Made by a program: the position numbers and the translations under genes. Positions 2 to 46,500 of a stretch of DNA of 53,838 nucleotides are shown here, piece after piece. The stretch spans positions 1 to 53,838 of the IMG/VR virus record IMGVR_UViG_3300030012_003138. One strand, written 5' to 3'. The notes beneath the pieces were generated by a model. It had not been told where the DNA came from and made no database searches. It was given only the letters and a program-made list of their open reading frames with translations. Source of the stretch: a virus. Its lineage: Duplodnaviria > Caudoviricetes. How positions within the stretch are numbered: the stretch's first letter is position 1; each line of letters begins with the position of its first letter.

Positions 2-619
2 CAATCAAGTTTACAATTAAGTTCTAATAACAGCACTGCTGCTAATCGCTCTATCTACCTAAACTCAAGTGGTAACGTAGGTATATCAACCACAAGCCCA
101 GCACATAAGCTGGATGTTGTCGGAACCTACAGGATCTCAGATAATACTACCAACGCTAACAACAAACTGCATAGGATGTTGGGTAGGCACTACACAAATG
201 CGGAGCAGGATGTTAATATCTTCTCCTCAATAAGCACAAGCTCAACTAATTTTATTAGCTTTGGAGGAGGGTCATCAAGCTATAATACAGCGACACATAT
301 CGTATTCTACACAGCTTCTAATAACACATCAACGTATGCAGTTGGTCAGGAGAGATTAAGGATTCATAATAATGGAAATATAGGAATTGCTGTAGGAAGC
401 CCACAACAGAAGTTGGATGTCGATGGGCTTATCAAACAAAAGGTATATACAGCTACTTCATTACCTTCACCAAGCTCTGCTACAAGAGGAGCCAGAGCAT
501 TCGTAAGTGATTCAGCAACAGCATATAACAGTTCTAGTGTTGGATCTGCAATAGGTAGTGGTGGTGGTAGTAATTTCGTACCTGTTTACAGCGATGGTTC
601 AAGTTGGAGAATCGGATAA
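2..619 (+). CDS. Tail fibre protein, C-terminal part (ORF open from window start)
   Basis: Frame is open from base 2 (QSSLQLSSNN...). Contains GNVGISTTSPAHKLDVVG and ERLRIHNNGNIGIAVGSPQQKLDVDG fibre repeats and a terminal VPVYSDGSSWRIG motif. Confidence 0.85.
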   Translation, partial: QSSLQLSSNNSTAANRSIYLNSSGNVGISTTSPAHKLDVVGTYRISDNTTNANNKLHRMLGRHYTNAEQDVNIFSSISTSSTNFISFGGGSSSYNTATHIVFYTASNNTSTYAVGQERLRIHNNGNIGIAVGSPQQKLDVDGLIKQKVYTATSLPSPSSATRGARAFVSDSATAYNSSSVGSAIGSGGGSNFVPVYSDGSSWRIG

Positions 620-627
620 TAAAGTTG

Positions 628-656
628 TTGCAATGACATAAATATGTAATTAATGT
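628..656 (+). promoter_or_regulatory. sigma70-like promoter, near-leaderless
   Basis: TTGCAA-17bp-TAATGT, then 7 nt to the ATG at 664. Confidence 0.45.
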
Positions 657-663
657 TCGTATT

Positions 664-936
664 ATGGACAAAAACGAAGAATCTCAGGAATTAGAAGCTA
701 AGAGTTTTGAATTTAACATTAACGACTTCGATCTGATTAGAAGAGCAGTCAACGCTTTGACCAATTTTGATAGTTGTGGAGGAAATAGACAACTGCTAGC
801 AAGATTTAACATCATAGGATCAAGCCTTGAAAGGCAGGGTCTTGATTGTGGTTTCTTACAAAAGCCTGATGAGGCACAAGAAGAGGAGCCTAAACAGGAA
901 TCCAGTGAGCCAGTCGAAGCAGAGGTAGTGCAATAA
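664..936 (+). CDS. Hypothetical protein downstream of tail fibre
   Basis: 90-aa ORF with an acidic tail, coupled to the next gene by a TAATG overlap. Confidence 0.6.
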   Translation: MDKNEESQELEAKSFEFNINDFDLIRRAVNALTNFDSCGGNRQLLARFNIIGSSLERQGLDCGFLQKPDEAQEEEPKQESSEPVEAEVVQ

Positions 937-1547
937 TGAAGTTTTATGTAGAGGTTGACAATGATGACCATATAGCTGGGATCACTAAGGCTAGGGAAGC
1001 ATATAATGCAGCCTTACCTCAGATTGATAACCCTGATTATGTGGAACCTGATCTAAGGGAAAAAATTGAAAACCCTGATTACGTGCCACCACAGGGTGAT
1101 CCACTAATTGAAAATCCTGACCATGTGCCAGCAAGAGAAGCTATAGGTGAGCCTCTCATAATGAATCCTAATTATGTACAGGCAATCGAAGCTGTAGGAC
1201 ACCCACAGATACCTAATCCTGATTATGATGAGGAAGATGAGGATTCTGAAGAGTTCATAGACAACCCTGATTACGTTCCTGCATCAGACGCTGTAGGGGA
1301 AGAGATGATGGCTAACCCTGATTATGTAGCAGCTACTGAGGCTGAAGGGGAGACAATGATTGAGAATCCCGATTATGTAGAAGCAGTTGGCGAACCTTTA
1401 ATTGATAACCCTGATTATACTGAAGGTACTCCAGACCTTCCAAAGATGATTGATGATGAAGGCTTTACAGAAGATAAAGACTACATAAAGTGGGTTATTG
1501 AGAAGGCTGCTGAGAGTTATGCCAAGGAATTTGGTATTATTGAATAA
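936..1547 (+). CDS. Acidic NPDY-repeat protein
   Basis: Nine I-x-N-P-[DN]-[YH] repeats between two helical segments. Confidence 0.8.
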   Translation: MKFYVEVDNDDHIAGITKAREAYNAALPQIDNPDYVEPDLREKIENPDYVPPQGDPLIENPDHVPAREAIGEPLIMNPNYVQAIEAVGHPQIPNPDYDEEDEDSEEFIDNPDYVPASDAVGEEMMANPDYVAATEAEGETMIENPDYVEAVGEPLIDNPDYTEGTPDLPKMIDDEGFTEDKDYIKWVIEKAAESYAKEFGIIE

Positions 1548-1568
1548 GTATGATATATTGCTCGCTTT

Positions 1569-1742
1569 ATGAGCAATAGCGAAATAGTAGCTAAAGGTGT
1601 TACAGGAGTGACTGGCTCTCTGATAGCAGTCACGATTCCTTATGCAGAAGTCATTCAATGGGGCATTCAAGTCGTTGGAGGACTCTTAGGTATCACTGTA
1701 GCTATAATAACTTTATATAATTTAATTAAGAAAAAGAAATGA
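1569..1742 (+). CDS. Small two-TM membrane protein, holin/antiholin candidate (not in ORF track)
   Basis: Translates to MSNSEIVAKGVTGVTGSLIAVTIPYAEVIQWGIQVVGGLLGITVAIITLYNLIKKKK. Preceded by TTGGTA-17-TATATT. Confidence 0.7.
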   Translation: MSNSEIVAKGVTGVTGSLIAVTIPYAEVIQWGIQVVGGLLGITVAIITLYNLIKKKK

Positions 1743-1903
1743 ATAAACAAGCAATATTAGGCATTATTCGTCATATGTTAACTTTCGGTGGTGGTTTTAT
1801 GACACAAAATGGCATGGCTTCTGGCGAAGAAGTTACTACTGGTGTATCGGCAGCAGTCACTCTTGTGGGTGTTATATGGTCAATTTTATCTAAAAAGAAG
1901 TAA
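1739..1903 (+). CDS. Putative holin, Pam3-gp28-like (not in ORF track)
   Basis: Translates to MNKQAILGIIRHMLTFGGGFMTQNG...AAVTLVGVIWSILSKKK, with an RHxLTxxGG motif, two hydrophobic segments and a basic C-tail. ATGA overlap with the previous gene. Confidence 0.75.
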   Translation: MNKQAILGIIRHMLTFGGGFMTQNGMASGEEVTTGVSAAVTLVGVIWSILSKKK

Positions 1904-2218: not shown

Positions 2219-2375
2219 TCCACCTACGATTAGCCTTATAAAAGGCTACGATTATCCGTTTGTAGAGGGTAATCTCATGGGTCGTGGTCAGAAGTTCCAT
2301 AGTGATTTTTCGTACAGACGTGCTATAATTATAGGTAATGATAGCAATCTGCGTAGGACACTCTCGACCAAATGA
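2106..2375 (+). CDS. Lipoprotein, o-spanin (Rz1-like) candidate
   Basis: Signal peptide MKLIALLLMVALLPS|C with a lipobox-like Cys, located immediately before the endolysin. Confidence 0.5.
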   Translation: MTLKMKLIALLLMVALLPSCNLSDLAGDSRLNESAIYDPPTISLIKGYDYPFVEGNLMGRGQKFHSDFSYRRAIIIGNDSNLRRTLSTK

Positions 2376-2892
2376 TTCAGGTGCAGCCTCAGTAACTGGA
2401 GTCACTGAATGGGATTACAATTCGGAGCTTGCCGAGATGATTGGCAAGGAACTAAAACAACCATATAAGGTTTACCACACCTATAAAGGTGGGAGTTATG
2501 TCACTGCTATGCGGTGGTTAGCTCGTAAACTCGATGAAGATCGTGTAGACACAGCCGTTGAATTGCATTTCAACGCAGCAACACCCAAAGCAACAGGCCA
2601 TGAATGGTTACACTGGCACACCTCTGAGAAAGGAAGATTACTTGCACGTACACTAAGGGATTCTTTTGAAGACTCTTTCCCTCTATTTAGGAGTAGGGGA
2701 ATTAAGCCACGTAAAAAAGGAAGTAGAGGAGCTTACTTTCTACGTGCGACCTCAATGCCCGCCTGTATCGCAGAACCATTTTTTGGGACTAATAAAGAAG
2801 ATTGGGATTTAGCTGTAAATAGTAAACAAGGAATGGCCTCTGCTATAGCAGGGGGGATCAAATTATATTCGGAGCTTGTGGAAAGGTGGTAA
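2338..2892 (+). CDS. Endolysin, N-acetylmuramoyl-L-alanine amidase (Amidase_3)
   Basis: Zn and catalytic motifs: VGH, E (EWDYN), ELHFNA, LR...PACIAEPFF. Confidence 0.9.
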   Translation: MIAICVGHSRPNDSGAASVTGVTEWDYNSELAEMIGKELKQPYKVYHTYKGGSYVTAMRWLARKLDEDRVDTAVELHFNAATPKATGHEWLHWHTSEKGRLLARTLRDSFEDSFPLFRSRGIKPRKKGSRGAYFLRATSMPACIAEPFFGTNKEDWDLAVNSKQGMASAIAGGIKLYSELVERW

Positions 2893-8916: not shown

Positions 8917-10035
8917 TTAAGAAAGGGTAAACCTTTCCTCTGACGTTTCTATGATGCCATTGTTTTTAACAGCGTCAAGAAAAGATCTTGATTTTTCTCC
9001 TTTTTCTCCTTTAGGAGCATTATCCCCCACAGCATTAGCTACTTTTTTGAGGGGTATATTAATCAAATTAAGTAAATCTTCTTGTTCTAAATCGTACTCT
9101 TTTGCTATCTCTAAGAGCTTTATGTTATCTGTACACTTACGAGTTGCTCCCATAGATTTAAGTTTTAAGTTCTGAAACTCCATTCCATCTTTAGCTAGAG
9201 CAACAGCTTTTTCTTTTACCCTCTTTGCCCAATTCTCTACAACTTTGGCTACAATATAAAGATGCTCTACTGTCTCAGGGTCATTAGGATCTTCTATGTT
9301 TTCTTTAGGTAAATTATCTCCTGATATACGTTGTACTATTTCAACTGCTAAACCACCAAGTGAAGGGCAATAATCTTCGTGTTTACAGAATCGGCAGTTA
9401 ACCGAAGGAGAAAGTGCGTCTGCTTCTGGGAAACCACCATCCCATTGAGGGCGCACTTTCTCCCCATTTCGTATTACGTCGGCTAGTTGCTTAACCAATA
9501 AGGGCAATTCCTCTCGTGTGAATGTTCCTTCCAGTACTTCATTGCGTACAGGTATATAGAACACAAAAGTGATTTCATCAAGCTCTGGATATTTTTGAAA
9601 AGCTCCAACCGTGTAAGCCCTTGCTTGCCAGTTACTTCTAGGTGGGTCTATTTCACTGACTCCTGTTTTATAATCTGCTAGTATGGCTCTATTACCAAAT
9701 GTAAGTAGTCTATCGCAAGTTCCCCACGTATTTGTAGAGTCAAGATCAACATCTAGTAAGATCTCATTCTCTTCCTTGTACTCCTGCCCTTTAGCATAAT
9801 TCTTGGTATACTCATCCTCTTGCTTGACGATTGCTTCATAGATCATGACTTCGTCTTCATCGTGCAGGGCAGAGGGATCACGAACTTCTAGGGCTTCGTG
9901 AATACGAGTACCTTTTTCAGCAGCAGCGTTTGTACCTGATCGTCCTTCGTAACCAGAACAACCTGCTACGTACTTGAGACTTGAGGGCGAGAAAGGAGCG
10001 TGTCCTCTGCTACTATGGTCTGGTTGGTTGTCCAT
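8917..10035 (-). CDS. DUF2800 / Cas4-like PD-(D/E)XK exonuclease
   Basis: HAPFSPSS..C, GTRIHEALE, WGTCD, DYKTG, QARAY, C.FC....CP. Confidence 0.85.
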   Translation of the reverse strand: MDNQPDHSSRGHAPFSPSSLKYVAGCSGYEGRSGTNAAAEKGTRIHEALEVRDPSALHDEDEVMIYEAIVKQEDEYTKNYAKGQEYKEENEILLDVDLDSTNTWGTCDRLLTFGNRAILADYKTGVSEIDPPRSNWQARAYTVGAFQKYPELDEITFVFYIPVRNEVLEGTFTREELPLLVKQLADVIRNGEKVRPQWDGGFPEADALSPSVNCRFCKHEDYCPSLGGLAVEIVQRISGDNLPKENIEDPNDPETVEHLYIVAKVVENWAKRVKEKAVALAKDGMEFQNLKLKSMGATRKCTDNIKLLEIAKEYDLEQEDLLNLINIPLKKVANAVGDNAPKGEKGEKSRSFLDAVKNNGIIETSEERFTLS

Positions 10036-10588
10036 GATGGGTAAATTCTTTGTGTAGTGAGGCTCTTAACTCTCTGAGTGCCTGTATAGCTTTTGCTTTT
10101 CCTTCTTCTGTATAAGGATATTTAGACGTACAGTATCGCCTACCGTTATAGTCTACTACTCCAACGTACACTACATGGTAGGAGCCGTCTTTTCTTTTAA
10201 ACCTTTGCACTCGTAGTCCTTTTACTCCTGTTTTGCTTTTTGCTTCCCAACGGTTTGCTTGGTTTTGGGCGTTGGTACATTCCCTTAAATTTTCTATTCT
10301 ATCATCTAAAGTATTATTATTTATATGATCGATCATTTTTTCTGTGTCTCCGTTAAATAAAGCCCACACAACTCTTGCTCTATAGTACACCTTACCTTTA
10401 AATTTTAATCTCCATCTTGTTCTCCTACCCCTTTTACTACTACCTTGAGATGGGCTATATAAAGAACCTGCAACGTCTCCTGCTTTCTTTTTCACGCCAC
10501 TTACTTTGTAATACAAAACTCCATCTCTATACTCAATTATATCTAAAAGATCTTGTGGTATAGCCCTTGCTATTTCTTTACGCTCCAT
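10013..10588 (-). CDS. HNH homing endonuclease (HNH_3 with AP2-like C-terminus)
   Basis: IDHINNNTLDDRIENLRECTNAQNQAN followed by SKTGVKG. Confidence 0.85.
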   Translation of the reverse strand: MERKEIARAIPQDLLDIIEYRDGVLYYKVSGVKKKAGDVAGSLYSPSQGSSKRGRRTRWRLKFKGKVYYRARVVWALFNGDTEKMIDHINNNTLDDRIENLRECTNAQNQANRWEAKSKTGVKGLRVQRFKRKDGSYHVVYVGVVDYNGRRYCTSKYPYTEEGKAKAIQALRELRASLHKEFTHHGQPTRP

Positions 10589-18399: not shown

Positions 18400-21300
18400 G
18401 TGACAGGAAAACTTACATCTAATTCGTTAGAATTTAATATATTTGATTCAACTCCTACGGAGACACCTATAAAATTTTCTCAATGGTCAAACGAATTTGG
18501 CACTGGTATAACAGGGGAAGAGGATAAAATAATTGGTTACAGTAATTACTTAAGAGAGTTTGAATTAGATCAAGGAAGTTTAGATAACAAAAAAGAAGCT
18601 TTAATACATAAGGGAGCTTTAAAAGCTATCGCAAAGATAAACCCAGAGTACGAATTAAGATCAGATGTAGGTACTATTGATACGGATGCAGCTCTTTTGT
18701 ATGATGCGTTTGGTCAAGAAGCACGAGATAACTTTTTAGACTCTATAAATAATGGGGCAGATAGAAATGATTTTACGGATGAAGTTAACGATGCTAAACG
18801 TCACTTAGTTGAACACGACATTTTACCTTTAGCTTCTCTTAAAACAACAAACAGTGAAGGGAATTCAACATATGAAGTTATAGGTAGTTCAGGTATATTG
18901 GACTCTAAAAAGGCAATCAATAACGCTATATCAAAAGGAGCGTTGCGTCACAGAGATATGTGGCAAGTAGGGATTGCTATGAAGCCTATACACAAAGGCG
19001 TAAATGGTTTTCAAGCGATACGAGATAATCAAATACGATCTGAGTTAGCGGAACTTTCTGATAGTGAGGAAGATAAAAACCTTTATGATGATATAGTTTC
19101 TGATAGTAAAAAGTATTTTAATAACCCTTCTAAAGATAAAGACTCCTCTGCCCTGATTACTAAAGCTCGGACTTTATTAGCTAGAGGATTTTCTCGTGAC
19201 AAAGACATCAAGGAGGATGTCTCAAGGAACAGGTTTCAGGATGCAGATATTATAAATAGTTTAGAGCAAATAGCTTCTTTTGAATCGTATCAAAGAGGGG
19301 AAATCCCTTTCATTGAAAACAAAGATAAGCTTGCTGATAATATTAAAGTAACTAAAAACGGAGCTGTTATACCTCACATTGGTCTTGTATTAGATAAATC
19401 AAAATTTGATTCTGCTATTGAATTAAAAAAAGATTTGAGTAAAGCCCAAGTCCGTTCATTAAAGAATTACAGGAAAACTTTTTTTACACAACAGTTCCCC
19501 GCATACGATGATTTATTTAAAGACTCTACAGTAGAGAACAAATGGGCGAAAGCTTTGATGGAGGGTAAGCAAAATAATAAATCTAATGGAGAAATATTAG
19601 ATGAGTTTCTACAGAACCCTAAAAACTACAGCAGTTTTAAAAACAAACTAGGTGCTATAAAGGACTCAATAGCTGATTCATTCACAGGGTTAGCTTTAGT
19701 TATACCCGCCCTTTTTGAAAATCAAGGCGCTATTGATTATCTGGTAGCTCAAGAAGAGGATAGGATGAATAGACGGGAAGTTGCAAAAGTATTTGGTAAA
19801 GACTTTGGTTTTGTAATGGATGTATCTACAGCTATCGCTCCTATGGTTACTGATATTTCAGCAACTATTTTATTAAGCTCTGGTACTTTAGGGTTTGGTG
19901 GGGCTGGTTACTTAGCCGTAAAACAAGGTACAAAACTCACTACAAAGGGACTTATTAAAAGCCTTGTAGCGAGTCCTTTACGTAGGAACGCAAGAGAGTC
20001 AACACTAACGCAAGCAGAAAGACTGATCAAGCAAGGTATTATAAAGGGGTCTCCTGATGTAGAAACTGTTACCGAAGCTATCAGCGCATATAATAAATTA
20101 CTTACAAAAGAAGTAACAAAGACCGTAACAAAGAAAGTAACTACTAAAGAAGGAGCTGAAGAGCTTGTTAAAAAAGAAGTTAAAGATGTAACTAGATCTA
20201 ATTTAGTTGCGGGAGTACAGACATCTGCTTTGTTTTTAACGGCTGCAAATAGGTCGGCAGGAGCTACTTATACGACAGTATATTCTAACCTCGAAGGTAC
20301 TCATGCAGAAAAACATGATGCTGCTATGGGAGCTGCTTTAATGGCGGGTATGGCTACAGGTTTGATTACAGCAGGGTTTAGTGCTGTTGGCGCAGGTGGT
20401 TTCGATGATGCTTTCTTGAGGGGTATGACTTTTAGACAGAAGAAAACTATCTTAGAGAATATGCGGAGATCTAAGATAGCGAATGAAAAAACATATGGAG
20501 AACAGTTAAAGAAAATTATATCCCAAAGGATTAAAGAAATCACTCCAAAAACTTTTAGTCAAACATACCAAAGATTTTTAAGAAGTGGAACTGAAGAATT
20601 TTTTGAAGAGGCTGTTGATGATTTTGTAAATGGTTTTATAACTGATGCTGCTTTAGATCAAGATACTCCGATGATTGAAAAGATATCATCTGCTATATAT
20701 TCAGGAGCTATAGGAGGTGTTATAGGTCAAGGTGCTGCGGGAGTTCGTGCGCTTGCCGATAAGAAGAATCTTTTTGCTAGTGGTGGTATTGAAAATTTTC
20801 GTAGAGCAGAAGAAAATGAAATAATTAAAAGGTTAGAAGACACAGGATCTCCTGAAACAGCTAGATTAGTTGCGGATCGTGAGCGGAGAACAGCACTCCG
20901 ATTAGAGTTACGTAAACCAGCGGGTGACACATCAATGGATTTCACTTCTGTGTTTTCTCCTTTAGACCAAGAGGGTGATACAAAAAAGACTCCAGATACT
21001 ACTGAAACTACTGATACCCCCACACAACAGACAGATCCTAGAAACTTCCAAACAGAACAGTCCGAGGGAAGTGTTGCTCCTGAATCACTAGATGTCATTG
21101 ATGATTATTTAGAAAAGAAAATTTCAAGAGAAGATGCCAATAAACAATTTGAAGAAATTAGAAAAAAGAAAGAAGGCACTCCAACAAAGGTTGAAACTAA
21201 AGATGATTCTCTTGATGCTGATGAAACTATATTAGATGAGACTTCTCAATCACAGTTACAAGTACTTAAAAGTATAGAAGATCTAGATTCTTTAACGGAG

Positions 21301-24300
21301 ATAGAAGCTGAACAATTTGATACTTTAAAAGAACAGTTAAAAGATGCTGCAATAGTAGCTCAAACATTTGGAGTTCCTATGCGTATTGTGCCAGAGGAAC
21401 TAGTTAATGAGAACACAAGGGCATTTGAATTTAAGTACTCCAAAGTTGGTAATGATGTAGAGGCAACTATACAAATAGACCCCAAACAACTTTATTCTAT
21501 TGTAAAAGGTTTAAATAAAAATAGTGCGAAAGGACTCATACGTGCTGTAATCTCAGAGGAAATAATACACGCTGCTACCTACGCAGAATTTACACCACAA
21601 GAAATATCAGAGCTGTTTAATGATTTATCTCCAGAAGATGTAGCAAGTATTCAAAGAGATTATTATATAAACGAGGTCGGTGATGTTGAGCAATCTAGTA
21701 TAAGGTTGAATGATCCTGAACAAGCTGAAAGTGAACAACGTGTTATTGTTCGAGAGTTTCTTAGAATGGAAGTTCAAAAAAGTCTTAGGGGGACTACCAC
21801 TGAATCTGAAATAAGATTCTATAAAACTAATCCAAGTTTGTTTGCGAGTTTGTTAAGGTATATGAGAAACTTCATACGCAAGTTAACAAACCTTTTAAAA
21901 AGAGATAAGGATAATGCAAGACTTCATATAGCCACCAACAGGATTGTTAATACTTATAACACCATGAGGTATGGTTATCGTTTATTTGATATACCCGCCT
22001 TTGATCCAGACAATCCATTAGAATCAGTCAATGTATTAAGAGCGCATCTAGAAGCCACTGAAACAGATCAAGAACTACCTCCTGATATGGCTACTTCTGT
22101 GGAAGTGTCACAGTCCCAAGTTTCTGGTGAAGCTGAAACAGATACCCTTTTACTAAAGCATGGTAATCTGGCAGGTATGTTAACACTTCCTCTTATGACT
22201 ACGGGAGAGTACAGGGGGAAATACCGAAAACTAAAAAAGTGGTTGAATGGTTTAAAAGGCTCACAAGATCCACGGCTACAAAGACTACATCAGCAATCAA
22301 TAGCAATTAGAAACGCTGCATTTAAAGAAATGCAACGCTATAAAAAACTATTAGACTATTATGTAGCAAAAGAATACCCAGATGGAGAAGTTCCAGTTCA
22401 TTTGTTTAGGGCTATTACTGGAGATGGTACAGGTTTACAACTGCCTACCAGCGTTAAAAAGAAAATCAAAAGAGAGCTAGGTAAAAAAGAAAAACAGATA
22501 TATGCAGAATTAAATGAACTAAAGGTAGGCACACAAGAACACGCAGATAAAAGAAAAGAACTAGACGAATTAGATAATCTACGAGATCAGGCATATGAAT
22601 TAGCTTTCCAAGCCCAGAAAATGGAGCTTGGTAGGTTACGTAATGAAGCTATAGAACAGCTTGGTGGGTTTGAAGCTGACGGAGTAACCCCTAAAAAGGA
22701 GATAGCAAAACACTTATTAGCTCTACGTAAAAAGACAGATGAGTTTTCAAAAGCAATAAGAGACTCTTACCCAAATAGTGAAGGTGTTGCCGATTCTTTA
22801 GCAGCTACTATTGACGCTAACTTAGAAGTTTATATTACAAGATCATATAAACTTTTTTCAGAAGCGGGATTTGCTGAACGTATGATGGAATCAGATGCCG
22901 ATTATTATGTAGAAAGGCGTAGCGCAGCAGCAGAATATTTTGAAAAACAGTATGTAAATGAAAGAGCTAGACAGATTTACTTACAGAGGAGATATAAGTT
23001 TTTAAGGACAGATGAATCAGAAAACCTATCTGAAGGAATCATAGCCAAGGAAGCAGGGATCAAAGGAGATACGATAAATGGTGAGACAGTTTATGAAGTA
23101 TTCTCTATGGAGGATGCTAGAAAGTTAGCAAAAGCTGAACTTAATCTAGATAAAGAAAAAGGAGCTGACTTATCTAATCCAATCGAAGCTGAGATGAAAG
23201 CATTCTTGGAACAATATGTACCCAAAGATGTTGACGCTTCCTTACTGGTAAAGGACAAAGAGAATGCTAAACCAATTAAAACAGTTCTAACAAATAATTT
23301 AAAGAAACGTAGAAAGATACCTTTAGTCCTACGTAACTTCATGGGAGAAGAACAAGATGCTACAGGGTATGATGCTATAATGAAAACTTATATGCACGTA
23401 GCTATCATGGCATCAAAACAATCTTTCCTACGGAACTTGGTTGAGTTTGGTTCTAAGCAAGAAAATAAATGGTTCGTAACTGCCGACGAAGCAAAGACTT
23501 TAAATGACAAATTAAAAGATCAAAAAGACTCAGAGGGTAAAAGGTACACTAAAATAACAAACAACGCTGATCCAAGATTTGATCCGTTTGTTATAAGTGG
23601 TACAAGAAACAGCAGATACTACGTCCCAGAAGATTTAAAAACAGCACTACAGTCTATATTAAAAGGGTTGAGTTTAGATAAAGCAACTGATGACGCTACA
23701 ATAATAGCAGAGAACATAGCTAAAACAGCAGGTTGGCTTACAGGTTTATCGATGGGAGCTAAAACATTAGGTTCTGTAGGTTTCTACATAAGAAACGCCC
23801 TCAGTAATATGTTATACTTTGCCCCCTCCCAAGGGATAATAGCTCCTGTTGGGTTAACGAGTGGGTTAATAAAAGAAGTATGGCGTAAAAGAGGTATATA
23901 TCTTGATGGCGTATTTCAACCAGAAGCTATAAACGCATACTATTTGAAACTAGATGTTTTAAATATAATTGAAGACGAGATAAGACCAAAACTTTTAGAG
24001 GAGCTTTTCAGAGGTGAGATAACTCCAAACAAAATGATGGATGATATGCGTAAAACTGTTGACGATATCGTAGCACATCCAGAAGGAGGAGCAGACTTTT
24101 TAGATAAAGTAAATGGAAAAGTAAGTGAGTTACCTAAACCCATAAAGAAGTTGTATGATAAGTTACGTACACTATCAGCAGCAATGGATAGTTTTTATAA
24201 GATATACTATTTTGAATATGAACTTAAATCACTTAAAAAAGCTAAAGAAGATTCAATAAAAGCAGGTCGAAATGATAAATATGCTCAAATGGACGAAATG

Positions 24301-25533
24301 CAACTTGAGCAGGAAGCAGCAGATAAAGTTCTGAGGACTTCACAATCTTATAGTAGATCAGCTCCTTTGATTGGGGGATTGTCTAAACCCCCTTATGGAA
24401 CCATGTTCGCACCATTCGTTCGATTCAAAGGCGAGTTAGTACGTATATTTGTTAACACTCCATTGCTTGCGATTGAAGAAATGAGTGATAGTAATCCTGT
24501 AATCAAAAGAAGAGGCATGGCTAGAATGGGCGGTCTTACCTTTACCACAGTAGGGTTATCTGCGTTACTCCCAATTATGCTCAGACAAGTGCTTGATGTG
24601 GAAGATGACGAGGATCAAGCTTTGAGAAGAACGCTCCCATCTTACCTCAAAAACCATACTTTCTTTTATTTCAAAGGGAAGGATGGGGACTTGTATTCAG
24701 TTGATATGACATATATCAACCCTTACTCATTGCTGGTAGATCCCTTTTTACGTACCATTGAACAAGGTTTATCAGGAGAAAGTCCAGCTAAGATGGGCGC
24801 TACTCTTGTAAAGAGTATGATATTTGATGAGTATTTAGATGAACAGATATTCGCAGGTGCTTTGAGTAGCTTCTTAAAAAACAGGAACCCACAGAATAAT
24901 AAAAAGATATGGGAAGAAAGAGACTCAACGGAACTCGCTTTTATGAAGGGAGCTATGTTCTTATTTGATGAAGCTGTTAACCCACCTATGCTGAAAGCAG
25001 CTATTGAGGCAGCCAAGATAAGTAAAGTTAACTCCATTGAAGAGGCTTTAAAACGGATAGGTAGAGAATTCTTACCCGCAAAACCACACAAGATTGATTT
25101 GTTTAGGAGTATGCGGAGATATTTATTCGATGCACGTAGGGAATCACAAAACATATCTCTTAGAAAGAATGAAGTGTTAAAAGATAGTCCTATGACTGAT
25201 CTTGAGATCAAAAAACTTATATTAAATGAAGTGGATCACAGAGTTCGTATAGATAAAGAAGTAGCGCACACACTTAAAAACATACAATCTCTTGGCGGTA
25301 TGACAGATAAAGAAGTGCGAGATATTGTTTTTGGAGCGCAGTTTGGTAAGCGGAGATATAAGTATCTAATGCAGGGACTTACAGAAACCCCAAAAGAAAC
25401 TCACGTAGCCTTACGGAAAAAGATAAAGGATAAATATAATTCTACGCAAGACCAAGAGTTTTTACGTAGATTAAATATAATAGACCAAGTTTATAAAAGC
25501 GTCCCAAGATTCTATAGTCACGAAGATATTTAA
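18400..25533 (+). CDS. Giant internal virion / DNA-ejection protein (2377 aa)
   Basis: Helical, with G/A-rich hydrophobic membrane-type segments (AAMGAALMAGMATGLITAGFSAVGAGG) and a zincin-like EEIIHA motif. Confidence 0.7.
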   Translation: MTGKLTSNSLEFNIFDSTPTETPIKFSQWSNEFGTGITGEEDKIIGYSNYLREFELDQGSLDNKKEALIHKGALKAIAKINPEYELRSDVGTIDTDAALLYDAFGQEARDNFLDSINNGADRNDFTDEVNDAKRHLVEHDILPLASLKTTNSEGNSTYEVIGSSGILDSKKAINNAISKGALRHRDMWQVGIAMKPIHKGVNGFQAIRDNQIRSELAELSDSEEDKNLYDDIVSDSKKYFNNPSKDKDSSALITKARTLLARGFSRDKDIKEDVSRNRFQDADIINSLEQIASFESYQRGEIPFIENKDKLADNIKVTKNGAVIPHIGLVLDKSKFDSAIELKKDLSKAQVRSLKNYRKTFFTQQFPAYDDLFKDSTVENKWAKALMEGKQNNKSNGEILDEFLQNPKNYSSFKNKLGAIKDSIADSFTGLALVIPALFENQGAIDYLVAQEEDRMNRREVAKVFGKDFGFVMDVSTAIAPMVTDISATILLSSGTLGFGGAGYLAVKQGTKLTTKGLIKSLVASPLRRNARESTLTQAERLIKQGIIKGSPDVETVTEAISAYNKLLTKEVTKTVTKKVTTKEGAEELVKKEVKDVTRSNLVAGVQTSALFLTAANRSAGATYTTVYSNLEGTHAEKHDAAMGAALMAGMATGLITAGFSAVGAGGFDDAFLRGMTFRQKKTILENMRRSKIANEKTYGEQLKKIISQRIKEITPKTFSQTYQRFLRSGTEEFFEEAVDDFVNGFITDAALDQDTPMIEKISSAIYSGAIGGVIGQGAAGVRALADKKNLFASGGIENFRRAEENEIIKRLEDTGSPETARLVADRERRTALRLELRKPAGDTSMDFTSVFSPLDQEGDTKKTPDTTETTDTPTQQTDPRNFQTEQSEGSVAPESLDVIDDYLEKKISREDANKQFEEIRKKKEGTPTKVETKDDSLDADETILDETSQSQLQVLKSIEDLDSLTEIEAEQFDTLKEQLKDAAIVAQTFGVPMRIVPEELVNENTRAFEFKYSKVGNDVEATIQIDPKQLYSIVKGLNKNSAKGLIRAVISEEIIHAATYAEFTPQEISELFNDLSPEDVASIQRDYYINEVGDVEQSSIRLNDPEQAESEQRVIVREFLRMEVQKSLRGTTTESEIRFYKTNPSLFASLLRYMRNFIRKLTNLLKRDKDNARLHIATNRIVNTYNTMRYGYRLFDIPAFDPDNPLESVNVLRAHLEATETDQELPPDMATSVEVSQSQVSGEAETDTLLLKHGNLAGMLTLPLMTTGEYRGKYRKLKKWLNGLKGSQDPRLQRLHQQSIAIRNAAFKEMQRYKKLLDYYVAKEYPDGEVPVHLFRAITGDGTGLQLPTSVKKKIKRELGKKEKQIYAELNELKVGTQEHADKRKELDELDNLRDQAYELAFQAQKMELGRLRNEAIEQLGGFEADGVTPKKEIAKHLLALRKKTDEFSKAIRDSYPNSEGVADSLAATIDANLEVYITRSYKLFSEAGFAERMMESDADYYVERRSAAAEYFEKQYVNERARQIYLQRRYKFLRTDESENLSEGIIAKEAGIKGDTINGETVYEVFSMEDARKLAKAELNLDKEKGADLSNPIEAEMKAFLEQYVPKDVDASLLVKDKENAKPIKTVLTNNLKKRRKIPLVLRNFMGEEQDATGYDAIMKTYMHVAIMASKQSFLRNLVEFGSKQENKWFVTADEAKTLNDKLKDQKDSEGKRYTKITNNADPRFDPFVISGTRNSRYYVPEDLKTALQSILKGLSLDKATDDATIIAENIAKTAGWLTGLSMGAKTLGSVGFYIRNALSNMLYFAPSQGIIAPVGLTSGLIKEVWRKRGIYLDGVFQPEAINAYYLKLDVLNIIEDEIRPKLLEELFRGEITPNKMMDDMRKTVDDIVAHPEGGADFLDKVNGKVSELPKPIKKLYDKLRTLSAAMDSFYKIYYFEYELKSLKKAKEDSIKAGRNDKYAQMDEMQLEQEAADKVLRTSQSYSRSAPLIGGLSKPPYGTMFAPFVRFKGELVRIFVNTPLLAIEEMSDSNPVIKRRGMARMGGLTFTTVGLSALLPIMLRQVLDVEDDEDQALRRTLPSYLKNHTFFYFKGKDGDLYSVDMTYINPYSLLVDPFLRTIEQGLSGESPAKMGATLVKSMIFDEYLDEQIFAGALSSFLKNRNPQNNKKIWEERDSTELAFMKGAMFLFDEAVNPPMLKAAIEAAKISKVNSIEEALKRIGREFLPAKPHKIDLFRSMRRYLFDARRESQNISLRKNEVLKDSPMTDLEIKKLILNEVDHRVRIDKEVAHTLKNIQSLGGMTDKEVRDIVFGAQFGKRRYKYLMQGLTETPKETHVALRKKIKDKYNSTQDQEFLRRLNIIDQVYKSVPRFYSHEDI

Positions 25534-42229: not shown

Positions 42230-43543
42230 GTGCCTGTACAGAGAAATCAACCAAGCCCTCAAAGGCAGTCAGTATTAACATTTGTATCTCCAAATGTTCA
42301 AGATTTATTATTTTATGAGACTGTAGATAAACAACGGGTTGGTAAAACACCCCCTGTTTATGGGTCAGCACACCCAAACACTACTAAGTTCCCTAACCAC
42401 AAACTAGTTTATGTTAAACAGTTTGATGCCGAGGGGCAGTTATACCAATACTACTATGCTGCTTCTAGGTCTAGCCAAGATGAATATAACTTTGAATATT
42501 CTCAAGCTAGTTTAGGAAACTCTAAATTTAATACTGTAGTCAGGACTTATGTTATTCCTAGGTCTGATTTTAAAGAAGATGATGCATCTTTAGAGGCTGG
42601 TGATGCTATGCCCACTGAACCTTCTTCAGCTAACTTTACTGATAAAGGGTATATTCTAATGTCCCGCCAACAAAAAAGATTAAGAGATCCAGAATTAGAC
42701 GGGCATTTTATTGTTGAGCAAAGAGTTTATTTTATTAGGGAAGACATTGAAACCCTGAAGTGGGATGAGTTATCGGGTTCTAATTTAAAAACAACAGTTA
42801 GTTATTTTGCGTTGGGAGAGACTCCTACTGGAGCTTCTTCAAATATACAGACTTTAATTTCTGATGCTGATAATTCTTATTGGGGTACTGCTATAGAGTA
42901 TAGAGAAGATTCACCCTCTCAGGGAAACTTAAACAAAGCAGTCGCTTTTTATAAAGAAGGAAGACAGGTATCTTTAGATTGGTTTGAAGTTGTAAAGATA
43001 GAAACAATGGCTGGTACAACTACTGATGGAACAATAAACTCAGCTACTACTTTACTTATTGAAGAACTAAATACCTCAATTAATTTTACATTCCCACCAG
43101 TTTTACAAAGCATTTCATCTGTTGCTTGGGAAAAGCATGATGGTCAAGTTCAACATAATCCAGAGTATCATATGAATCCAGAAGGGTATAGTGGACCTTG
43201 TAGAGCTGTAATTAAAAAAGAATATAGGACAACAGAGTTTGATCTCGACGTTCCTAAAGCTATGCAGCCCCAGTCTTTTGCATTTTCTACTCCTTATATA
43301 AATATAAGAATACCCTCTTGTTTAATTGATGGTCCAGCGTTAGGTAGTGAAATTGGATTCACTACAGGAACTACTGACCCTGTATATAAATATACCGCAT
43401 ATATTAAAACATTACCTAAAACAGATCCACCAAATCTTAAAAAGATAGCTGAAACTGGGCTTAGAGCTAGAGTCATCCAACAAAAATCTAGGGGTGGTTA
43501 TATAAAAGAAACTACTACTGTATTCCCTCCGTCTTTTAATTAA
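42230..43543 (+). CDS. Putative tail structural protein
   Basis: Beta-rich 437 aa, coupled to the giant fibre gene. Confidence 0.55.
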   Translation: MPVQRNQPSPQRQSVLTFVSPNVQDLLFYETVDKQRVGKTPPVYGSAHPNTTKFPNHKLVYVKQFDAEGQLYQYYYAASRSSQDEYNFEYSQASLGNSKFNTVVRTYVIPRSDFKEDDASLEAGDAMPTEPSSANFTDKGYILMSRQQKRLRDPELDGHFIVEQRVYFIREDIETLKWDELSGSNLKTTVSYFALGETPTGASSNIQTLISDADNSYWGTAIEYREDSPSQGNLNKAVAFYKEGRQVSLDWFEVVKIETMAGTTTDGTINSATTLLIEELNTSINFTFPPVLQSISSVAWEKHDGQVQHNPEYHMNPEGYSGPCRAVIKKEYRTTEFDLDVPKAMQPQSFAFSTPYINIRIPSCLIDGPALGSEIGFTTGTTDPVYKYTAYIKTLPKTDPPNLKKIAETGLRARVIQQKSRGGYIKETTTVFPPSFN

Positions 43544-46500
43544 TGCCTGAACAATTTACAGATGGTAATATTGGAGCTTTCGGAGCTCCCATATCTCCTG
43601 CTGACAGGGAAGTAACTGAGTCTTCACTAAACAAAATCCCTGATGTGGGATTACAAGGGTATACCGACAGTGGGGCTTATAGTAGTAATTATCCTTCGGG
43701 AATGGTTGGGTCTACTCCACAAGACGAGATTCGTTATCGTCAGGAGCATGAGCCTTATAATTATCAGCCAGACGATGATCAATTTGTTTATATAACAAAA
43801 GCTTATTTATATGAGATACATCCCTTACTAAATGAAGAGGAATCAAAGCTAATAAAAAAGCACGAGCTAAGTCCTTTAAAAATAAAGTTAGATACAAAGA
43901 AAGGTTGTGTATATACACAATTTATGGTGGATCAACAAGGGAAGGTTATAGGTGAATATAATCTTTTAAAGACAGAAGAGGATGAACCTCCCGATTCAAC
44001 ACCATTTCAGTTATTGAATGCAGATGGTGACGATGAGCCTGATAAGTACGGTATATATAATGTTCTTATATTTAAATTCGCAGATGGAGTTATTTTAAGA
44101 AATAATTATGATTCTGATAAAGATGATCCAAGATCTGTAAGAGGGCATGGTGGTATAGAAGGGCATAGGGGACCACTTATATGGTCCCGTGGTTATAATA
44201 CTATAAACAATTTAGGTATTGGGGGTGGGATGATATATGAAGGATATAATCTTACTGAGGATAAAATAAATTTACGAACCCTAATGGGGCAAGGTCAGAT
44301 CAGTGTATCAACGGCTGGTGATCAAATAAATATCCGAGGAAACAGTAATAATAAAACTTGGCAAGCAGTTCCTGATGATAACGTAAGTTATAGCAATACT
44401 ACATTAGCTACATTTGCAGATGGATTATTGACTGGAACCCCAAACGAGTTAAAAGTTGTAGAAGTTGCTAAATCAACAGGTTCGGGAACTACAGTTAACA
44501 CTTTTGTTGATACAGACGATGTAACATTGAATGTTGATACTCTAACATCTACTTCTGTAAATTTACCAACAGGTAGTGGTATAGAGTTATCTACTGAGAA
44601 GTATACTCCTACAGCAGTAAGTACTGAAGGACCAATAACACAGAAGGCTAACGCTTTAGTTGAAGGGACGGATATTGACCTTGACGCTGTCGAAGTAACT
44701 TCTGTAGAGATGCTTCCTCCAAGTGGGTCAAGTTTAGAGCTAGAAACGTATGATTATAAGCCTACATCAGTTTCTACTGAAGGGCCAATAACGAAAGAGA
44801 CTGGCAGTCTTAAAGAAGGATCAAACATTGACCTGCAAGCTGTTAAACTACAAACGCAAGCAATAACTCCTCCAAGTGGGTCAAGTTTAGATTTAGAAAC
44901 TAATCAATATGCTACCGTAGATTTAGGGTTTAAAACGACGGGTATAGATTCTACTGTTTTAAAAGGAGGTGATAATTTAACTACAACAGCTACTGAACTA
45001 CGTTCAAAAAGTGTGCCTGTTCAAGATACGGGAGTTAAGGAATATACATCTAAAGCATTTCCTCCCCATACTCTAACGGCTACAGCAGGAACTTTAAAAG
45101 AAGAAGTGGGGGCGGGGAATGACGTTACTTTATCATCAGTTGAATTAAGTCCAACTTCTTTGTCTGGGATAACTTTAAGTCGTAAGACATACACCCCAAC
45201 ACAAGTTGGCACTAAGACAACAACTGAAACTTCTTTTTACACAGGAGGTAATCAATTAACAACAACACCTACACCCTTATCTGTAACACGATCACCTGTA
45301 TTAGAATTTGATACTAAAAAATATACTTCTAGGCAGTTAGAGCAACTATCATTACAAAAGAAGACTAATATTTTATCTAAATCAGCATCTACGGCAGAAA
45401 CTACTTTAGAAGCAACTGCGTTAAAAACTACTTCAATAACTCCTCCAAGTAGTACTCCACTATCTTTAGGGACTAAGACATATACTCCTAGAGCGTTATC
45501 TAAACAGACATTAACTAAAGAAACTACTGCTTTAAAAGGTGGTAGTGAGTTAGACACAACTGTTGCTACTTTAAGCACAAAAAAAGCAGACATTGTTTCT
45601 TCTACACCGAACACTTATAAAGCTAGGTCGTTAGATAAAACAACTTTATCCCCTCAGTCGAAAGCTTTACACGGAGGTAACCCCCTTACCTGTCATCCGA
45701 CAGATTTAAACACGGAGACTCTTGAAGCTCCCGAACTATCCGTCAAAACTTTTACTACTACTGAGTTAGGAACTGCTTCTTTATCAAAGCAAGATATGAC
45801 GACTAAAGCGTTTAGTCGTGTTGAAGAAACTTTTAATGAAAATTTAAAGCAACAATTAAAGGCTTTAAAAGGTGGTACTGATTATATCTGTACTCCTACA
45901 GATATGACGACTAAAGCGTTTAGTCGTGTTGAAGAATCTCTTGATGAAAATTTAAAGCAACAATCAGGTGCTTTAAAAGGCGGTACTAATTACACATGCA
46001 CCCCTACGGCTATGACGACTAGAGCGTTTAGTCCTGTTGAAGAATCTCTTAATGAACATTTACAACAACAATCGGGTACTTTAAAAGGTGGTGTTGATTA
46101 CACATGTAATCATACAGATTTTAAAGTTAAGACGTTTAGTCGTGTTGAAGAATCTTTTAATGAAAATTTAAAGCAACAATCAGGTGCTTTAAAAGGTGGT
46201 GCTGATTACACATGCACTCCTACGTCTATGACGACTAAGTCGTTCACGACTCAAGCTAATGCCTTACAAGGTGGTAGTAATTTAGATTTAGTATATAGAG
46301 AGGTCTACCTTACAGATAATCAAACGCCTGTTTGGGTCTTAGGACCAAAGAATGTTCCATCAAATACTTCTGCTACGGTAACTGCTGTTGTTGGAGTAGA
46401 GAGATATACAGGAATAAAGAGGTCGGATGGCAACACTGCTACTAATTTCCATTTATACCAATCTGGGACTGATCCAGTTACTGGTAATAATAAAGTATTA

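Follow-up and report, generated by a model that had tools for sequence, protein, structure and literature searches.

A phage protein encoded beside a tail-fibre gene, with a predicted hairpin arm resembling the calreticulin/calnexin P-domain

What kind of structure is formed by a phage protein in which nine copies of one short motif are spaced as a palindrome, and what might such a protein do beside a tail-fibre gene? The question is raised by ORF-B, encoded near the start of the IMG/VR virus record IMGVR_UViG_3300030012_003138 (Duplodnaviria; Caudoviricetes), which is 87% complete and was analysed over its whole length of 53,838 nucleotides, referred to here as the window. A first-pass annotation, made from the letters of the window, had described a very acidic, antiparallel stalk inserted in a loop of a small helical domain and encoded beside the tail fibre. 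The reading that we favour, and regard as reasonably probable, is that ORF-B consists of a base domain and a register-locked, P-domain-like hairpin arm, and serves very long tail fibres as an accessory or assembly factor. The coordinates of the features discussed are collected in Table 1.

Table 1. Features of the ORF-B locus and of the tail-fibre gene in the window
Feature	Positions	Strand	Description
Tail-fibre gene, C-terminal end, cut by record start	2..619	+	PHROG matches phrog_9942 (1.8e-8) and phrog_18345 (3e-8)
ORF-A	664..936	+	90 aa; stop overlaps ORF-B start; acidic C-terminal tail ending EVVQ
ORF-B	936..1547	+	203 aa, acidic; base domain with inserted NPDY arm (predicted hairpin)
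Base domain, N-terminal part, residues 1-28	936..1019	+	Short strand region and helix A (AGITKAREAYNAAL)
Ascending limb, residues 29-93	1020..1214	+	Motifs 1-4 and the strand preceding motif 5; linkers 10, 10, 13, 13
Turn, residues 94-106	1215..1253	+	Motif 5 (NPDY) and acidic tip DEEDEDSEE
Descending limb, residues 107-173	1254..1454	+	Motifs 6-9; linkers 13, 13, 10; 12-aa tail
Base domain, C-terminal part, residues 174-203	1455..1544	+	Helix B (DYIKWVIEKAAESYAKEF)
ORFs overlapping the region	991..1134 and 1398..1670	-	From the ORF list
Tail-fibre gene, N-terminal part, off record end	51551..53836	+	phrog_21412 tail fiber, 4.4e-49

A mirrored array inserted in a small domain

The palindrome reported in the first-pass annotation proved exact. 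By scripted count ORF-B has nine NP[DN][YH] motifs and no more (seven NPDY, one NPDH and one NPNY), with linkers of 10, 10, 13, 13, 12, 13, 13 and 10 residues in order; the middle linker is DEEDEDSEEFID, and the last motif is followed by the 12 residues TEGTPDLPKMID directly before DEG. When the residues of the protein were shuffled 100,000 times, 98,335 shuffles contained no motif, 1,656 contained one and 9 contained two, and never were there more than two. In the first-pass annotation the array was also taken to follow the design principle of a giant gene at a smaller scale; neither giant ORF carries an NP[DN][YH] motif or belongs to any Pfam or PHROG family. The protein is also as acidic as was claimed, with 54 D and E residues against 11 K and R over its whole length and 42 against 4 in the arm (residues 29-176). 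Tandem Repeats Finder returned no rows for positions 600..1900, so the repeats are not recent duplications of DNA; the mean identity of the nine 27-nt motif cores is 68% as DNA and 63% as protein, which indicates repeats that are old and held by selection at the protein level. The plus-strand reading frame of ORF-B, whose ATG shares one base with the stop of the upstream ORF, is the frame conserved in all relatives, and orthologues with the full length of 203 aa and 69-91% identity occur at 11 more loci.

That the array interrupts a separate domain is borne out by homologues of 58-62 aa that lack the arm altogether, in which AGIT.AREAYN of the N-terminal part runs straight on into the helix YVQFVM..AAESYAKQY of the C-terminal part without any repeat. 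The N-terminal base part of ORF-B aligns with the N-terminal half of these homologues, and in the helix B part four residues (Y183, V187, S194 and Y195) are invariant in a 34-sequence alignment. Many phages, and some proteobacterial genomes as well, encode the arm-less base domain as a stand-alone protein; arm-less forms comprise P0032, P0041 and 18 of 37 viral loci (L017-L031, L034 and L037 among them), and a single degenerate motif is present in P0033, P0038, P0040, P0042, L032 and L033. PHROGs, NCBIfam and Pfam hold no family for the base domain of ORF-B or for the arm-less form, and an ESM Atlas look-up with the latter returned only unnamed clusters, viral for the most part.

The insert had further been expected to be absent from some homologues or to change by two motifs at a time, and this is the pattern found. 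The architectures seen among relatives have 0, 2+2, 3+2, 4+3 (in two kinds) or 5+4 motifs. Every one of the 18 unique complete sequences with an arm, which together span four architectures, has an odd number of motifs (5, 7 or 9) and is symmetric about a middle linker that lies at the turn; L015 has gained units of 14 residues, instead of 17, and has done so on both limbs. A 2+2 form with spacing 10|6|10 occurs in P0030, L052 and L053, and a 2+2 insert with spacing 13|12|13 is found in an unrelated protein of 640 aa (P0043), where the turn carries a similar tip, DPTDEDSEAF. Judged from these sequences, related phages alter the length of the arm two repeats at once, one unit per limb. Purifying selection acts on ORF-B, with dN/dS values in seven pairs of 0.08-0.17 for the whole gene, 0.07-0.16 for the arm and 0.06-0.21 for the flanks; the motif cores gave 0.02-0.13 where computable and the linkers 0.16-0.33.

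Predicted fold of the arm

Two AlphaFold2 runs bear on the proposed antiparallel stalk. The first, on an alignment of 15 sequences (A1), was uninformative, with a pLDDT of 57 overall and 44-58 over the arm, a model without secondary structure over the arm, and no match in a Foldseek search of that model. The second used the 34-sequence alignment (A4), and the pairing was read from the DSSP pattern; here the mean pLDDT was 91.1 (five models, 88.8-91.1) and the blocks of the arm reached 91-96. The confident model thus depends on the alignment, given the low values of the 15-sequence run over the arm, and the nested gaps of A4 may themselves steer the prediction.

The second model agrees with a stalk of the kind proposed: each limb contributes 23 bridge residues, mirrored at i+j = 200-202, so that each outgoing repeat is predicted to pair with a returning one. 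On the ascending limb the model places strands of three residues each at 29-31, 43-45, 57-59, 74-76 and 91-93, with single bridges at 50, 53, 64, 67, 70, 81, 84 and 87; on the descending limb the strands are at 107-109, 124-126, 141-143, 155-157 and 171-173, and the bridges at 114, 117, 120, 131, 134, 137, 148 and 151. No bridge residue lies between 94 and 106 in this model, the 12-aa tail of the descending limb is paired with the segment preceding motif 1, and the base is formed by helices at 10-25 (pLDDT 88-94) and 180-198.

We propose from this model that the two base segments would together form a small strand-helix-helix domain, with an arm of ~145 residues inserted in the loop between the helices. 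The nine I-x-N-P-D-Y motifs would run outward, reverse at the acidic tip and return, motif i packing against motif 10-i; the 'x-I-x' triplets ahead of the motifs would form short cross-strand bridges, and the linkers would supply rungs at every third residue. Such an arm would be an antiparallel hairpin locked in register, its length alterable only by one unit on each limb together. The apparent rule of growth would then be one unit per limb, with the register kept by the I-x-N-P bridges. By proportion to calnexin the arm may be displayed as a stiff, strongly negative rod of about 13-14 nm, with the tip as a putative binding site; a stiff rod of this kind, adjustable in length by pairs of repeats, could serve protein design.

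Likeness to the calreticulin/calnexin P-domain

The arms of calnexin and calreticulin are regarded as an invention of the eukaryotic endoplasmic reticulum (ER), and their P-domain is built from two repeats, motif 1 (I-DP[DE]A-KPEDWD[DE]) and motif 2 (G-W--P-I-NP-Y). ORF-B matches the corresponding Pfam family, PF00262, with 37.6 bits (cut-off 25; E 1.7e-9) in three stretches, the best of which covers profile positions 299-339 of 369, the motif-2 part alone. Above the same cut-off are L015 (38.5 bits), P0001 (33.8), P0004 (28.9) and P0013 (27.2); P0006 (18.5 bits), P0009 and P0026 fall below it, and P0030 and P0037 have no PF00262 match. Literature searches, with most subscription journals outside their reach, returned no report of a P-domain-like arm from a phage or a prokaryote. 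The resemblance had not been recognised in the first reading of the sequence.

A second family with an NPDY arm came from the same work (alignment A2: P0009, P0011-13, P0015, P0026 and P0037), consisting of unnamed metagenome proteins of 159-184 aa. Like ORF-B these have NPDY units with 10- to 13-residue linkers flanking a turn (phmmer E 1e-6 to 1e-8 against ORF-B), but their flanking domains are unrelated to the base of ORF-B. They stand nearer to calreticulin than ORF-B does because their turn has a motif-1-like unit, I-x-D-P-x-W..P-E-x-F-D, which is found in the A2 family only. Profile searches of the PDB returned calreticulin or calnexin in nine of ten matches with A2 (best 3rg0, E 3.7e-4) and in five of six with A1 (best E 0.027), and hhalign against four true calreticulins gave a probability of 96.5% over 74 columns for A2 and of 88.6% over 37 columns for A1. 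The single ORF-B sequence found no calreticulin when searched against the PDB with phmmer; the GH114 TIM-barrel 9ep5 (E 2.2e-4, through NPD-rich stretches) and rubrerythrins (E > 0.6) that it did match were judged to be chance.

Comparison of the A4 model with known structures leads to the same proteins at low scores. Foldseek placed calnexin 1jhn first (E 0.028, prob 0.75, TM 0.19/0.12) and calreticulin chains second and third, with 1hhn only at rank 11 and no match at E <= 0.001; VIA-align superposed the model on 1jhn with a Z of 2.4 and an rmsd of 8.9 A over 59 residues. Long curved arms superpose poorly as rigid bodies.

Two papers describe the P-domain as a hairpin in which each motif 1 is paired with a motif 2 and isoleucines are conserved, with an arm of 140 A whose tip binds ERp57 and a repeat number that changes pairwise, from 111222 in calreticulin to 11112222 in calnexin (PMC9913998, PMC11764459). 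ORF-B has in common with it proline-rich repeats containing I-x-N-P-x-Y, a 14-residue period for units of motif-2 type and a long hairpin (predicted, in ORF-B) set inside a loop of another domain; outgoing-limb repeats paired (in ORF-B, by prediction) to those of the returning limb, conserved isoleucines, an acidic tip and a repeat number that shifts in pairs complete the likeness. All nine ORF-B units read I/M-x-N-P-[DN]-[YH]; the I(-2), N, P and Y of motif 2 are present in eight of the nine, one unit having M, while most units have P(-4) and G(-6) and three have the 14-residue period, the 17-residue units being motif-2-like units with three more linker residues. The differences are equally clear. 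The lectin (N) domain is absent, the ~58 residues outside the arm aligning instead to the small phage domain; there is no motif 1, motif-2-like units occurring on both limbs; the arm has no W and hence no tryptophan clusters; and ORF-B would be a cytoplasmic or virion-borne phage protein, unlike the ER-resident calreticulin and calnexin. Lacking lectin domain, motif 1 and tryptophan, ORF-B is a variant and not a member of that family, and we take its arm to be related to the P-domain arm of calreticulin and calnexin, or at the very least to be its close structural counterpart.

Such a counterpart could also have arisen without common descent, the hairpin being real and the likeness due to convergence on the short proline-turn motif I-x-N-P-x-Y. 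The Pfam match spans just ~40 profile columns, profile scores are inflated by repeats, the rigid structural matches are weak, and tryptophan, motif 1 and lectin domain are missing; moreover, LPXTG-type proteins with NPDY repeats gave a PF00262 match in none of five cases. The A2 family speaks against this, as it is phage-like and bridges ORF-B and calreticulin: its alignment to calreticulin runs through 74 columns with a single gap region and takes in the tip, three motif-2 units of 14 residues and I-x-D-P-x-W-x-x-P-E-x-F-D, which is like motif 1. Shared, too, are the 14-residue period and the positions P(-4), I(-2), N, P, D/E and Y. We consider convergence unlikely.

A phage arm of this kind raises the question of where the P-domain originated. 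In a bolder form of descent, which we hold to be rather improbable, the I-x-N-P-D-Y zip hairpin would be an old, mobile module of prokaryotes and phages, ancestral to the P-domain, acting here as a chaperone arm with its length matched to the fibre. Were this true, the module would have entered loops of scaffolds as different as the phage base domain, the A2 family and P0043, perhaps those of actinobacterial surface proteins too, and paired gain of units would tune its length; the arm would be anchored beside the folding giant fibre in an ER-like manner, its acidic tip recruiting a foldase or holding the fibre. Quite apart from ancestry, a homotypic phage version that is under selection, with prokaryotic relatives, would offer a simpler picture of the way in which such arms fold and lengthen.

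Neighbouring genes and possible function

The tail fibre was rightly named as the neighbour of ORF-B. Both ends of the window match PHROG tail-fibre families (Table 1), the product of 2..619 shares 51% identity with the C-terminal end of the fibre in relative L001, and the two segments are probably parts of the same fibre gene; in the complete relative G001 a single fibre ORF of 4,588 aa stands at the corresponding place. The gene order of tail fibre, small ORF and ORF-B is conserved. In 19 of the 21 loci L017-L037 the upstream stretch of about 1.1 kb contains a fibre motif, in G001-G005 long fibre ORFs precede the gene, and the proteins of 277-452 aa found upstream in arm-less loci have repeats in common with the long fibres. 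Of 37 related loci, 32 have an ORF of 49-81 aa that runs up to the start of ORF-B (homologues of ORF-A aligned as A5); some loci lack it, namely L032, L061 and L062. ORF-A has no family in PHROGs, NCBIfam or Pfam; its homologue in L017 gave a sub-threshold match to Pfam M_domain (17.3 bits, cut-off 25.6). For phage biology, the locus brings to light a pair of small genes, unnamed and widespread, that goes with tail-fibre genes.

Arm and fibre vary together. Fibre ORFs measure 1,224-4,588 aa where the neighbouring gene has an arm and 277-452 aa where it has none; the length-tunable acidic stalk appears only beside very large fibres, and arm length correlates with fibre length (Spearman rho 0.88, n=15, the points being phylogenetically non-independent and representing about five independent lineages). 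Fibre assembly and accessory proteins are encoded just downstream of fibre genes in several phages, examples being lambda Tfa, Mu U, P2 G and T4 gp38/gp57A. Like Tfa-type accessory proteins, ORF-B is encoded immediately behind the fibre gene and on its strand, an arrangement kept across diverse phages, but neither it, nor the arm-less form, nor ORF-A belongs by PHROG, Pfam or NCBIfam to the Tfa, gp38 or gp57A families. The base domain is encoded right after a tail-fibre gene, usually also after the ~50-aa partner ORF, and in our model ORF-B is probably a tail-fibre accessory or assembly factor.

The base could instead be a ribbon-helix-helix (RHH) protein that binds DNA and regulates late or lysis genes, or the arm could be a mimic of DNA directed against host nucleases, with adjacency to the fibre incidental. 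When the model was compared by VIA-align with 48,161 chains, RHH proteins made up most of the 50 matches listed (Z 5.6-3.7 over 41-55 residues), including TraM, NikR, ParB of pCXC100, TacA, PutA, Arc and MazE; like 3omy TraM, 1q5v NikR and 2rbf PutA, and the Arc/MetJ/CopG type in general, the base is predicted to have a short N-terminal strand followed by two helices in ~45-55 residues (rmsd 2.2-4 A). In addition, two holins and an amidase are encoded just downstream of ORF-B, and the elongated acidic proteins Ocr and ArdA are known to mimic DNA. However, these Z values stay under the tool's own noise mark of 8, and searches of Pfam and NCBIfam gave no sequence match between ORF-B and an RHH family. 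By inspection, both the arm-less form and ORF-A are net acidic like ORF-B itself. In RHH proteins the loop between helices A and B contacts the DNA backbone, and it is here, in place of the helix-helix turn, that ORF-B has its arm and its relatives a loop. The conserved neighbour, moreover, is the fibre gene and not the lysis genes: among downstream ORFs scanned from six of the loci L017-L037, no holin or amidase was recognised. We regard this alternative as very unlikely. A role in lysis itself, considered on account of the downstream holins, was rejected as the main reading because of the conserved fibre neighbour and the lack of a membrane segment in ORF-B.

The weakest alternative, to which we give hardly any credence, is that the repeats are an acidic, proline-rich spacer, intrinsically disordered and without fixed pairing. 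This would suit an arm rich in D, E and P and the structureless arm of the 15-sequence model, but such a spacer should tolerate one-sided indels, against which stand the odd, symmetric arrays of 18 of 18 sequences in four architectures, the equal dN/dS of the arm and the folded flanks, and the mirrored bridges of the high-scoring second model.

The short motif itself extends beyond the arm-bearing family that we place with the tail fibre. With the A2 family as query, a scan of viral contigs found no A2-type gene; it recovered the ORF-B loci again together with five more (L051-L055), which comprise one ORF-B fragment, two 2+2 forms and two LPXTG-type proteins. Among cultured phages, tblastn matched 39 Microbacterium phage records alone, at 31-35% identity, and these were set aside as a different protein with the same short motif, being LPXTG-type membrane proteins with GEPTI.NPDYVPA repeats.

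The NPDY array and the domain that carries it

ORF-B, whose ATG and the stop codon of the upstream ORF-A have one base in common (Table), contains nine NP[DN][YH] motifs separated by linkers of 10, 10, 13, 13, 12, 13, 13 and 10 residues, with 12 residues preceding DEG, and a script recovered exactly the series that the first-pass annotation had listed. The motif count did not exceed two in 100,000 residue shuffles of ORF-B, and no DNA-level repeat was found in the array. The whole protein carries 54 D+E and 11 K+R; its arm (residues 29–176) accounts for 42 and 4 of these, and contains neither cysteine nor tryptophan.

Table. Features of the record discussed in the text
Feature	Position	Strand	Remarks
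Tail-fibre gene, cut by both record ends	51551..53836 and 2..619	+	PHROG tail-fibre matches
ORF-A	664..936	+	Directly upstream of ORF-B
ORF-B	936..1547	+	203 aa
Membrane protein	1569..1742		57 aa; directly after ORF-B
Holin, Pam3 gp28 family	1739..1903		54 aa; PF23987, 3.3e-15
Amidase_3 endolysin	2338..2892		4.6e-23
HNH endonuclease	10013..10588	-	phrog_99, 2.1e-35
Giant ORF	18400..25533	+	2,377 aa; rich in charged residues
Giant ORF	43543..50019	+	2,158 aa; rich in T and S

HMMER searches returned 16 matches when word-indexed and 32 when exhaustive, and 37 loci came from scanning viral contigs (proteins are given P-numbers and loci L-numbers). Repeat-free proteins of 58–62 aa (P0032, P0041 and 18 of the 37 loci) align to the first 28 and the last ~30 residues of ORF-B. 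These arm-less homologues join both flanks without the repeat, which bears out the proposal that the array interrupts a small domain; by alignment, it is an insert within a small and widespread phage domain. Bacterial genome records contain arm-less forms too (Chitinasiproducens palmae and two MAGs, one of Reyranella and one betaproteobacterial), a single NPDY is present in the base-domain homologue P0020, and a single degenerate P-N-P-x-L is carried by P0033, P0038, P0040, P0042, L032 and L033.

When the base domain was compared with 48,161 PDB representatives, the best 50 matches were mostly ribbon-helix-helix proteins (TraM, NikR, ParB of pCXC100, TacA, PutA, Arc, MazE and omega), with 41–55 residues aligned at 2.2–5 Å and Z of 5.6–3.7, in a range (below 8) that the tool itself warns is common; no sequence families backing this match were found. 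The modelled topology is at most suggestive of a ribbon-helix-helix and, if this holds, the arm would be located in the turn between the two base helices, A and B. Permuted base-domain forms have the two helices in reverse order (L035 3305..3835, L036 5127..5657, L063 3830..4087), with a strand followed by the helix-B-like YLTFV.N.AAESY..QY and then the helix-A-like AGITAAREAYNAALP.

Among unique complete arm-bearing sequences, 18 of 18 have an odd number of motifs and linkers symmetric about the middle one, a symmetry that is trivial where all linkers are of 10 residues, so that the weight falls on the mixed 10/13 architectures and on the fixed position of the odd-length turn at the centre. 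The architectures comprise five motifs (10,10,[12],10; P0005–8), seven motifs (10,10,13,[12],13,10; P0001 and P0004, the latter identical to L013 and L014), nine motifs (10,10,13,13,[12],13,13,10; the window's ORF-B and L001–L011) and a different set of seven in L015 (10,10,10,[22],10,10). In this last, a second lineage has grown by 14-residue units on both limbs, the window's lineage having done so by 17-residue units. A 2+2 arm spaced 10|6|10 is found in P0030, L052 and L053, and the fragments P0002, P0003, P0017, L012 and L051 are consistent with symmetric architectures over their reach. The expectation that the insert changes by two motifs at a time thus stood, with no arbitrary counts or asymmetric linkers among complete homologues. 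The NPDY arm also seems to behave as a transferable module, as P0043, an otherwise unrelated 640-aa metagenome protein with a signal peptide, has a 2+2 NPDY hairpin (13|12|13) near its C-terminus (residues ~535–600), the tip of which, DPTDEDSEAF, is near-identical to that of the ORF-B arm.

Predicted hairpin and likeness to calreticulin P-domains

With 15 sequences, only one of which covered the inner units, AlphaFold2 gave a mean pLDDT of 57 (44–58 over the arm), and Foldseek found no match with this model. With the 34-sequence alignment A4, the additions to which include ten full-length nine-motif orthologues, the mean pLDDT of five models was 88.8–91.1 and that of the arm 91–96, although the nested gaps of A4 may have aided the hairpin prediction. 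DSSP assigns a three-residue strand to the x-I-x triplet before each motif, both on the ascending limb (29–31, 43–45, 57–59, 74–76 and 91–93) and on the descending limb (107–109, 124–126, 141–143, 155–157 and 171–173), and single bridges at each third linker residue, two per 10-residue and three per 13-residue linker. If strand partners are read from this pattern, the 23 bridge residues of each limb give mirrored sums (i+j) of 200–202 throughout, as expected from one in-register antiparallel hairpin, in which a 13-residue linker must face another because three residues add one rung. The antiparallel stalk that had been envisaged is therefore confidently predicted from the larger alignment, and a zipped hairpin is probably the form of the arm.

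The arm is also under selection. In seven pairwise comparisons among 203-aa orthologues, dN/dS was 0.07–0.16 for the arm and 0.06–0.21 for the flanks, with motif cores at 0.02–0.13 where computable and linkers at 0.16–0.33; the constraint on the arm equals that on the folded base.

Pfam PF00262 matches ORF-B at 37.6 bits (cut-off 25, E 1.7e-9), only over profile positions 299–339, the motif-2 repeats. L015, P0001, P0004 and P0013 lie above the cut-off and P0006, P0009 and P0026 below it; no match was found in P0030, P0037 or the five LPXTG-type NPDY proteins tested. Passages of PMC11764459 and PMC9913998 describe the P-domain as a hairpin rich in proline, with repeats in the order 111222 or 11112222, every motif-1 unit paired with a motif-2 unit and conserved isoleucines that stabilise it; they give 140 Å as the reach of the calnexin arm, and ERp57, ERp29 and cyclophilin B as binding partners of the tip. 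A second NPDY-arm family (alignment A2; 159–184 aa, with other flanks and I-x-D-P-x-W..P-E-x-F-D at the turn) matches the ORF-B protein at E 1e-6 to 1e-8. Its profile retrieved calreticulin or calnexin in nine of ten PDB matches (3rg0, E 3.7e-4; 1hhn, 9.1e-4; 1jhn, 0.043), in an alignment that spans a motif-1 unit, the tip and three motif-2 units, and the profile of ORF-B's own family did so for calreticulin in five of six (best E 0.027). Against four true calreticulins (A3), hhalign gave a probability of 96.5% for A2 (74 columns) and of 88.6% for the ORF-B family alignment, A1 (37 columns). By profile comparison, then, the arm is P-domain-like. In a Foldseek search with the 34-sequence model, calnexin 1jhn ranked first (E 0.028), ahead of calreticulin in ranks two and three, with TM-scores below 0.2 and no match reaching E 0.001; VIA-align of the model with 1jhn gave Z 2.4.

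The phage arm and the P-domain have in common the hairpin logic, the I-x-N-P-x-Y unit, a 14-residue period and an acidic tip, and we regard true kinship as reasonably probable; convergence seems rather unlikely. Unlike calreticulin and calnexin, the phage protein has no lectin domain, no motif 1 and no tryptophans, and is therefore best described as carrying a new, homotypic type of P-domain-like arm and not as a member of the calreticulin family. No report of such arms in phages or prokaryotes was found in the literature searched, the coverage of which is incomplete. Many GEPTI.(V).NPDYVPA units occur in cell-wall-anchor-type (LAxTG/LPxTG-like) proteins of Actinobacteria and Microbacterium phages (P0010, P0014, P0016, P0021, P0023, P0028, P0031, P0034, P0035, P0044–P0047, L054, L055 and 39 Microbacterium phage records).

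Tail-fibre neighbourhood and proposed function

The gene is tied to fibre genes. As had been noted, ORF-B lies beside the tail fibre, with PHROG tail-fibre matches upstream and ORF-A between. The IMG/VR record, of 53,838 bases, has an estimated completeness of 87%; both of its ends fall in fibre coding sequence and G001, a complete relative of 62,947 bases, has one fibre ORF of 4,588 aa at the corresponding place. The ~13% that is missing therefore probably corresponds to the central part of a giant, repeat-rich fibre gene in which the assembly was interrupted. In arm-less loci, an upstream 277–452-aa protein shares repeats with the long fibres, and 19 of the 21 loci L017–L037 have a fibre motif no further than about 1.1 kb upstream, the other two having too little upstream sequence. 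Across G001–G005 (longer virus-record stretches) and L017–L037, no motifs occur beside fibre ORFs of 277–452 aa and seven to nine beside those of 1,224–4,588 aa: nine in G001 and in G002 (2,354 + 1,873 aa), and seven in G003 (3,026 aa) and, as 14-residue units, in G004 (1,224 aa); G005 has a 2+2 arm and a fibre ORF of 1,403 aa. Motif number rises with fibre ORF length (Spearman rho 0.88, n=15), on points that are not independent and are uncorrected for relatedness.

A 49–81-aa ORF ends at the start of ORF-B in 32 of 37 loci; the five exceptions comprise two loci truncated by the end of their contig, two permuted forms and one locus in which the fibre gene immediately precedes ORF-B. In arm-bearing lineages, ORF-A (window; L001 5798..6001; L013 5756..6001) has a long acidic tail ending in E-V-V-[EQ]. 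This tail is missing from the ~50-aa ORF-A of arm-less loci, which reads like strand-helix-G-L-N-helix, an order reminiscent of a ribbon-helix-helix. No named families were found for the base domain or ORF-A.

The position of ORF-B behind the fibre gene is also that of known genes for fibre assembly or accessory proteins (lambda tfa, Mu U, P2 G and T4 gp38), and we tentatively propose a fibre-accessory function, possible but somewhat doubtful. The base, possibly as a dimer or jointly with ORF-A, would anchor ORF-B at the tail fibre or close by, either at the assembly stage or in the finished virion, and the arm would project as a stiff, strongly negative rod whose conserved acidic tip may bind a partner. 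By proportion, the rod would be roughly 13–14 nm long, since each limb has ~65 residues, compared with ~70 in the 140 Å arm of calnexin.

The lysis cassette 3' of ORF-B (membrane protein, holin and endolysin) has an identical order in L013. No NP[DN][YH] motifs and no Pfam or PHROG families were found in the two giant ORFs, and no close cultured relative was found for the window's terminase. The second giant ORF has internal repeats of ~100 aa, with recurring LKGG, LYST and KVLTT words, and the HNH endonuclease gene lies within the replication module, with an exonuclease gene on one side and a helicase gene on the other.
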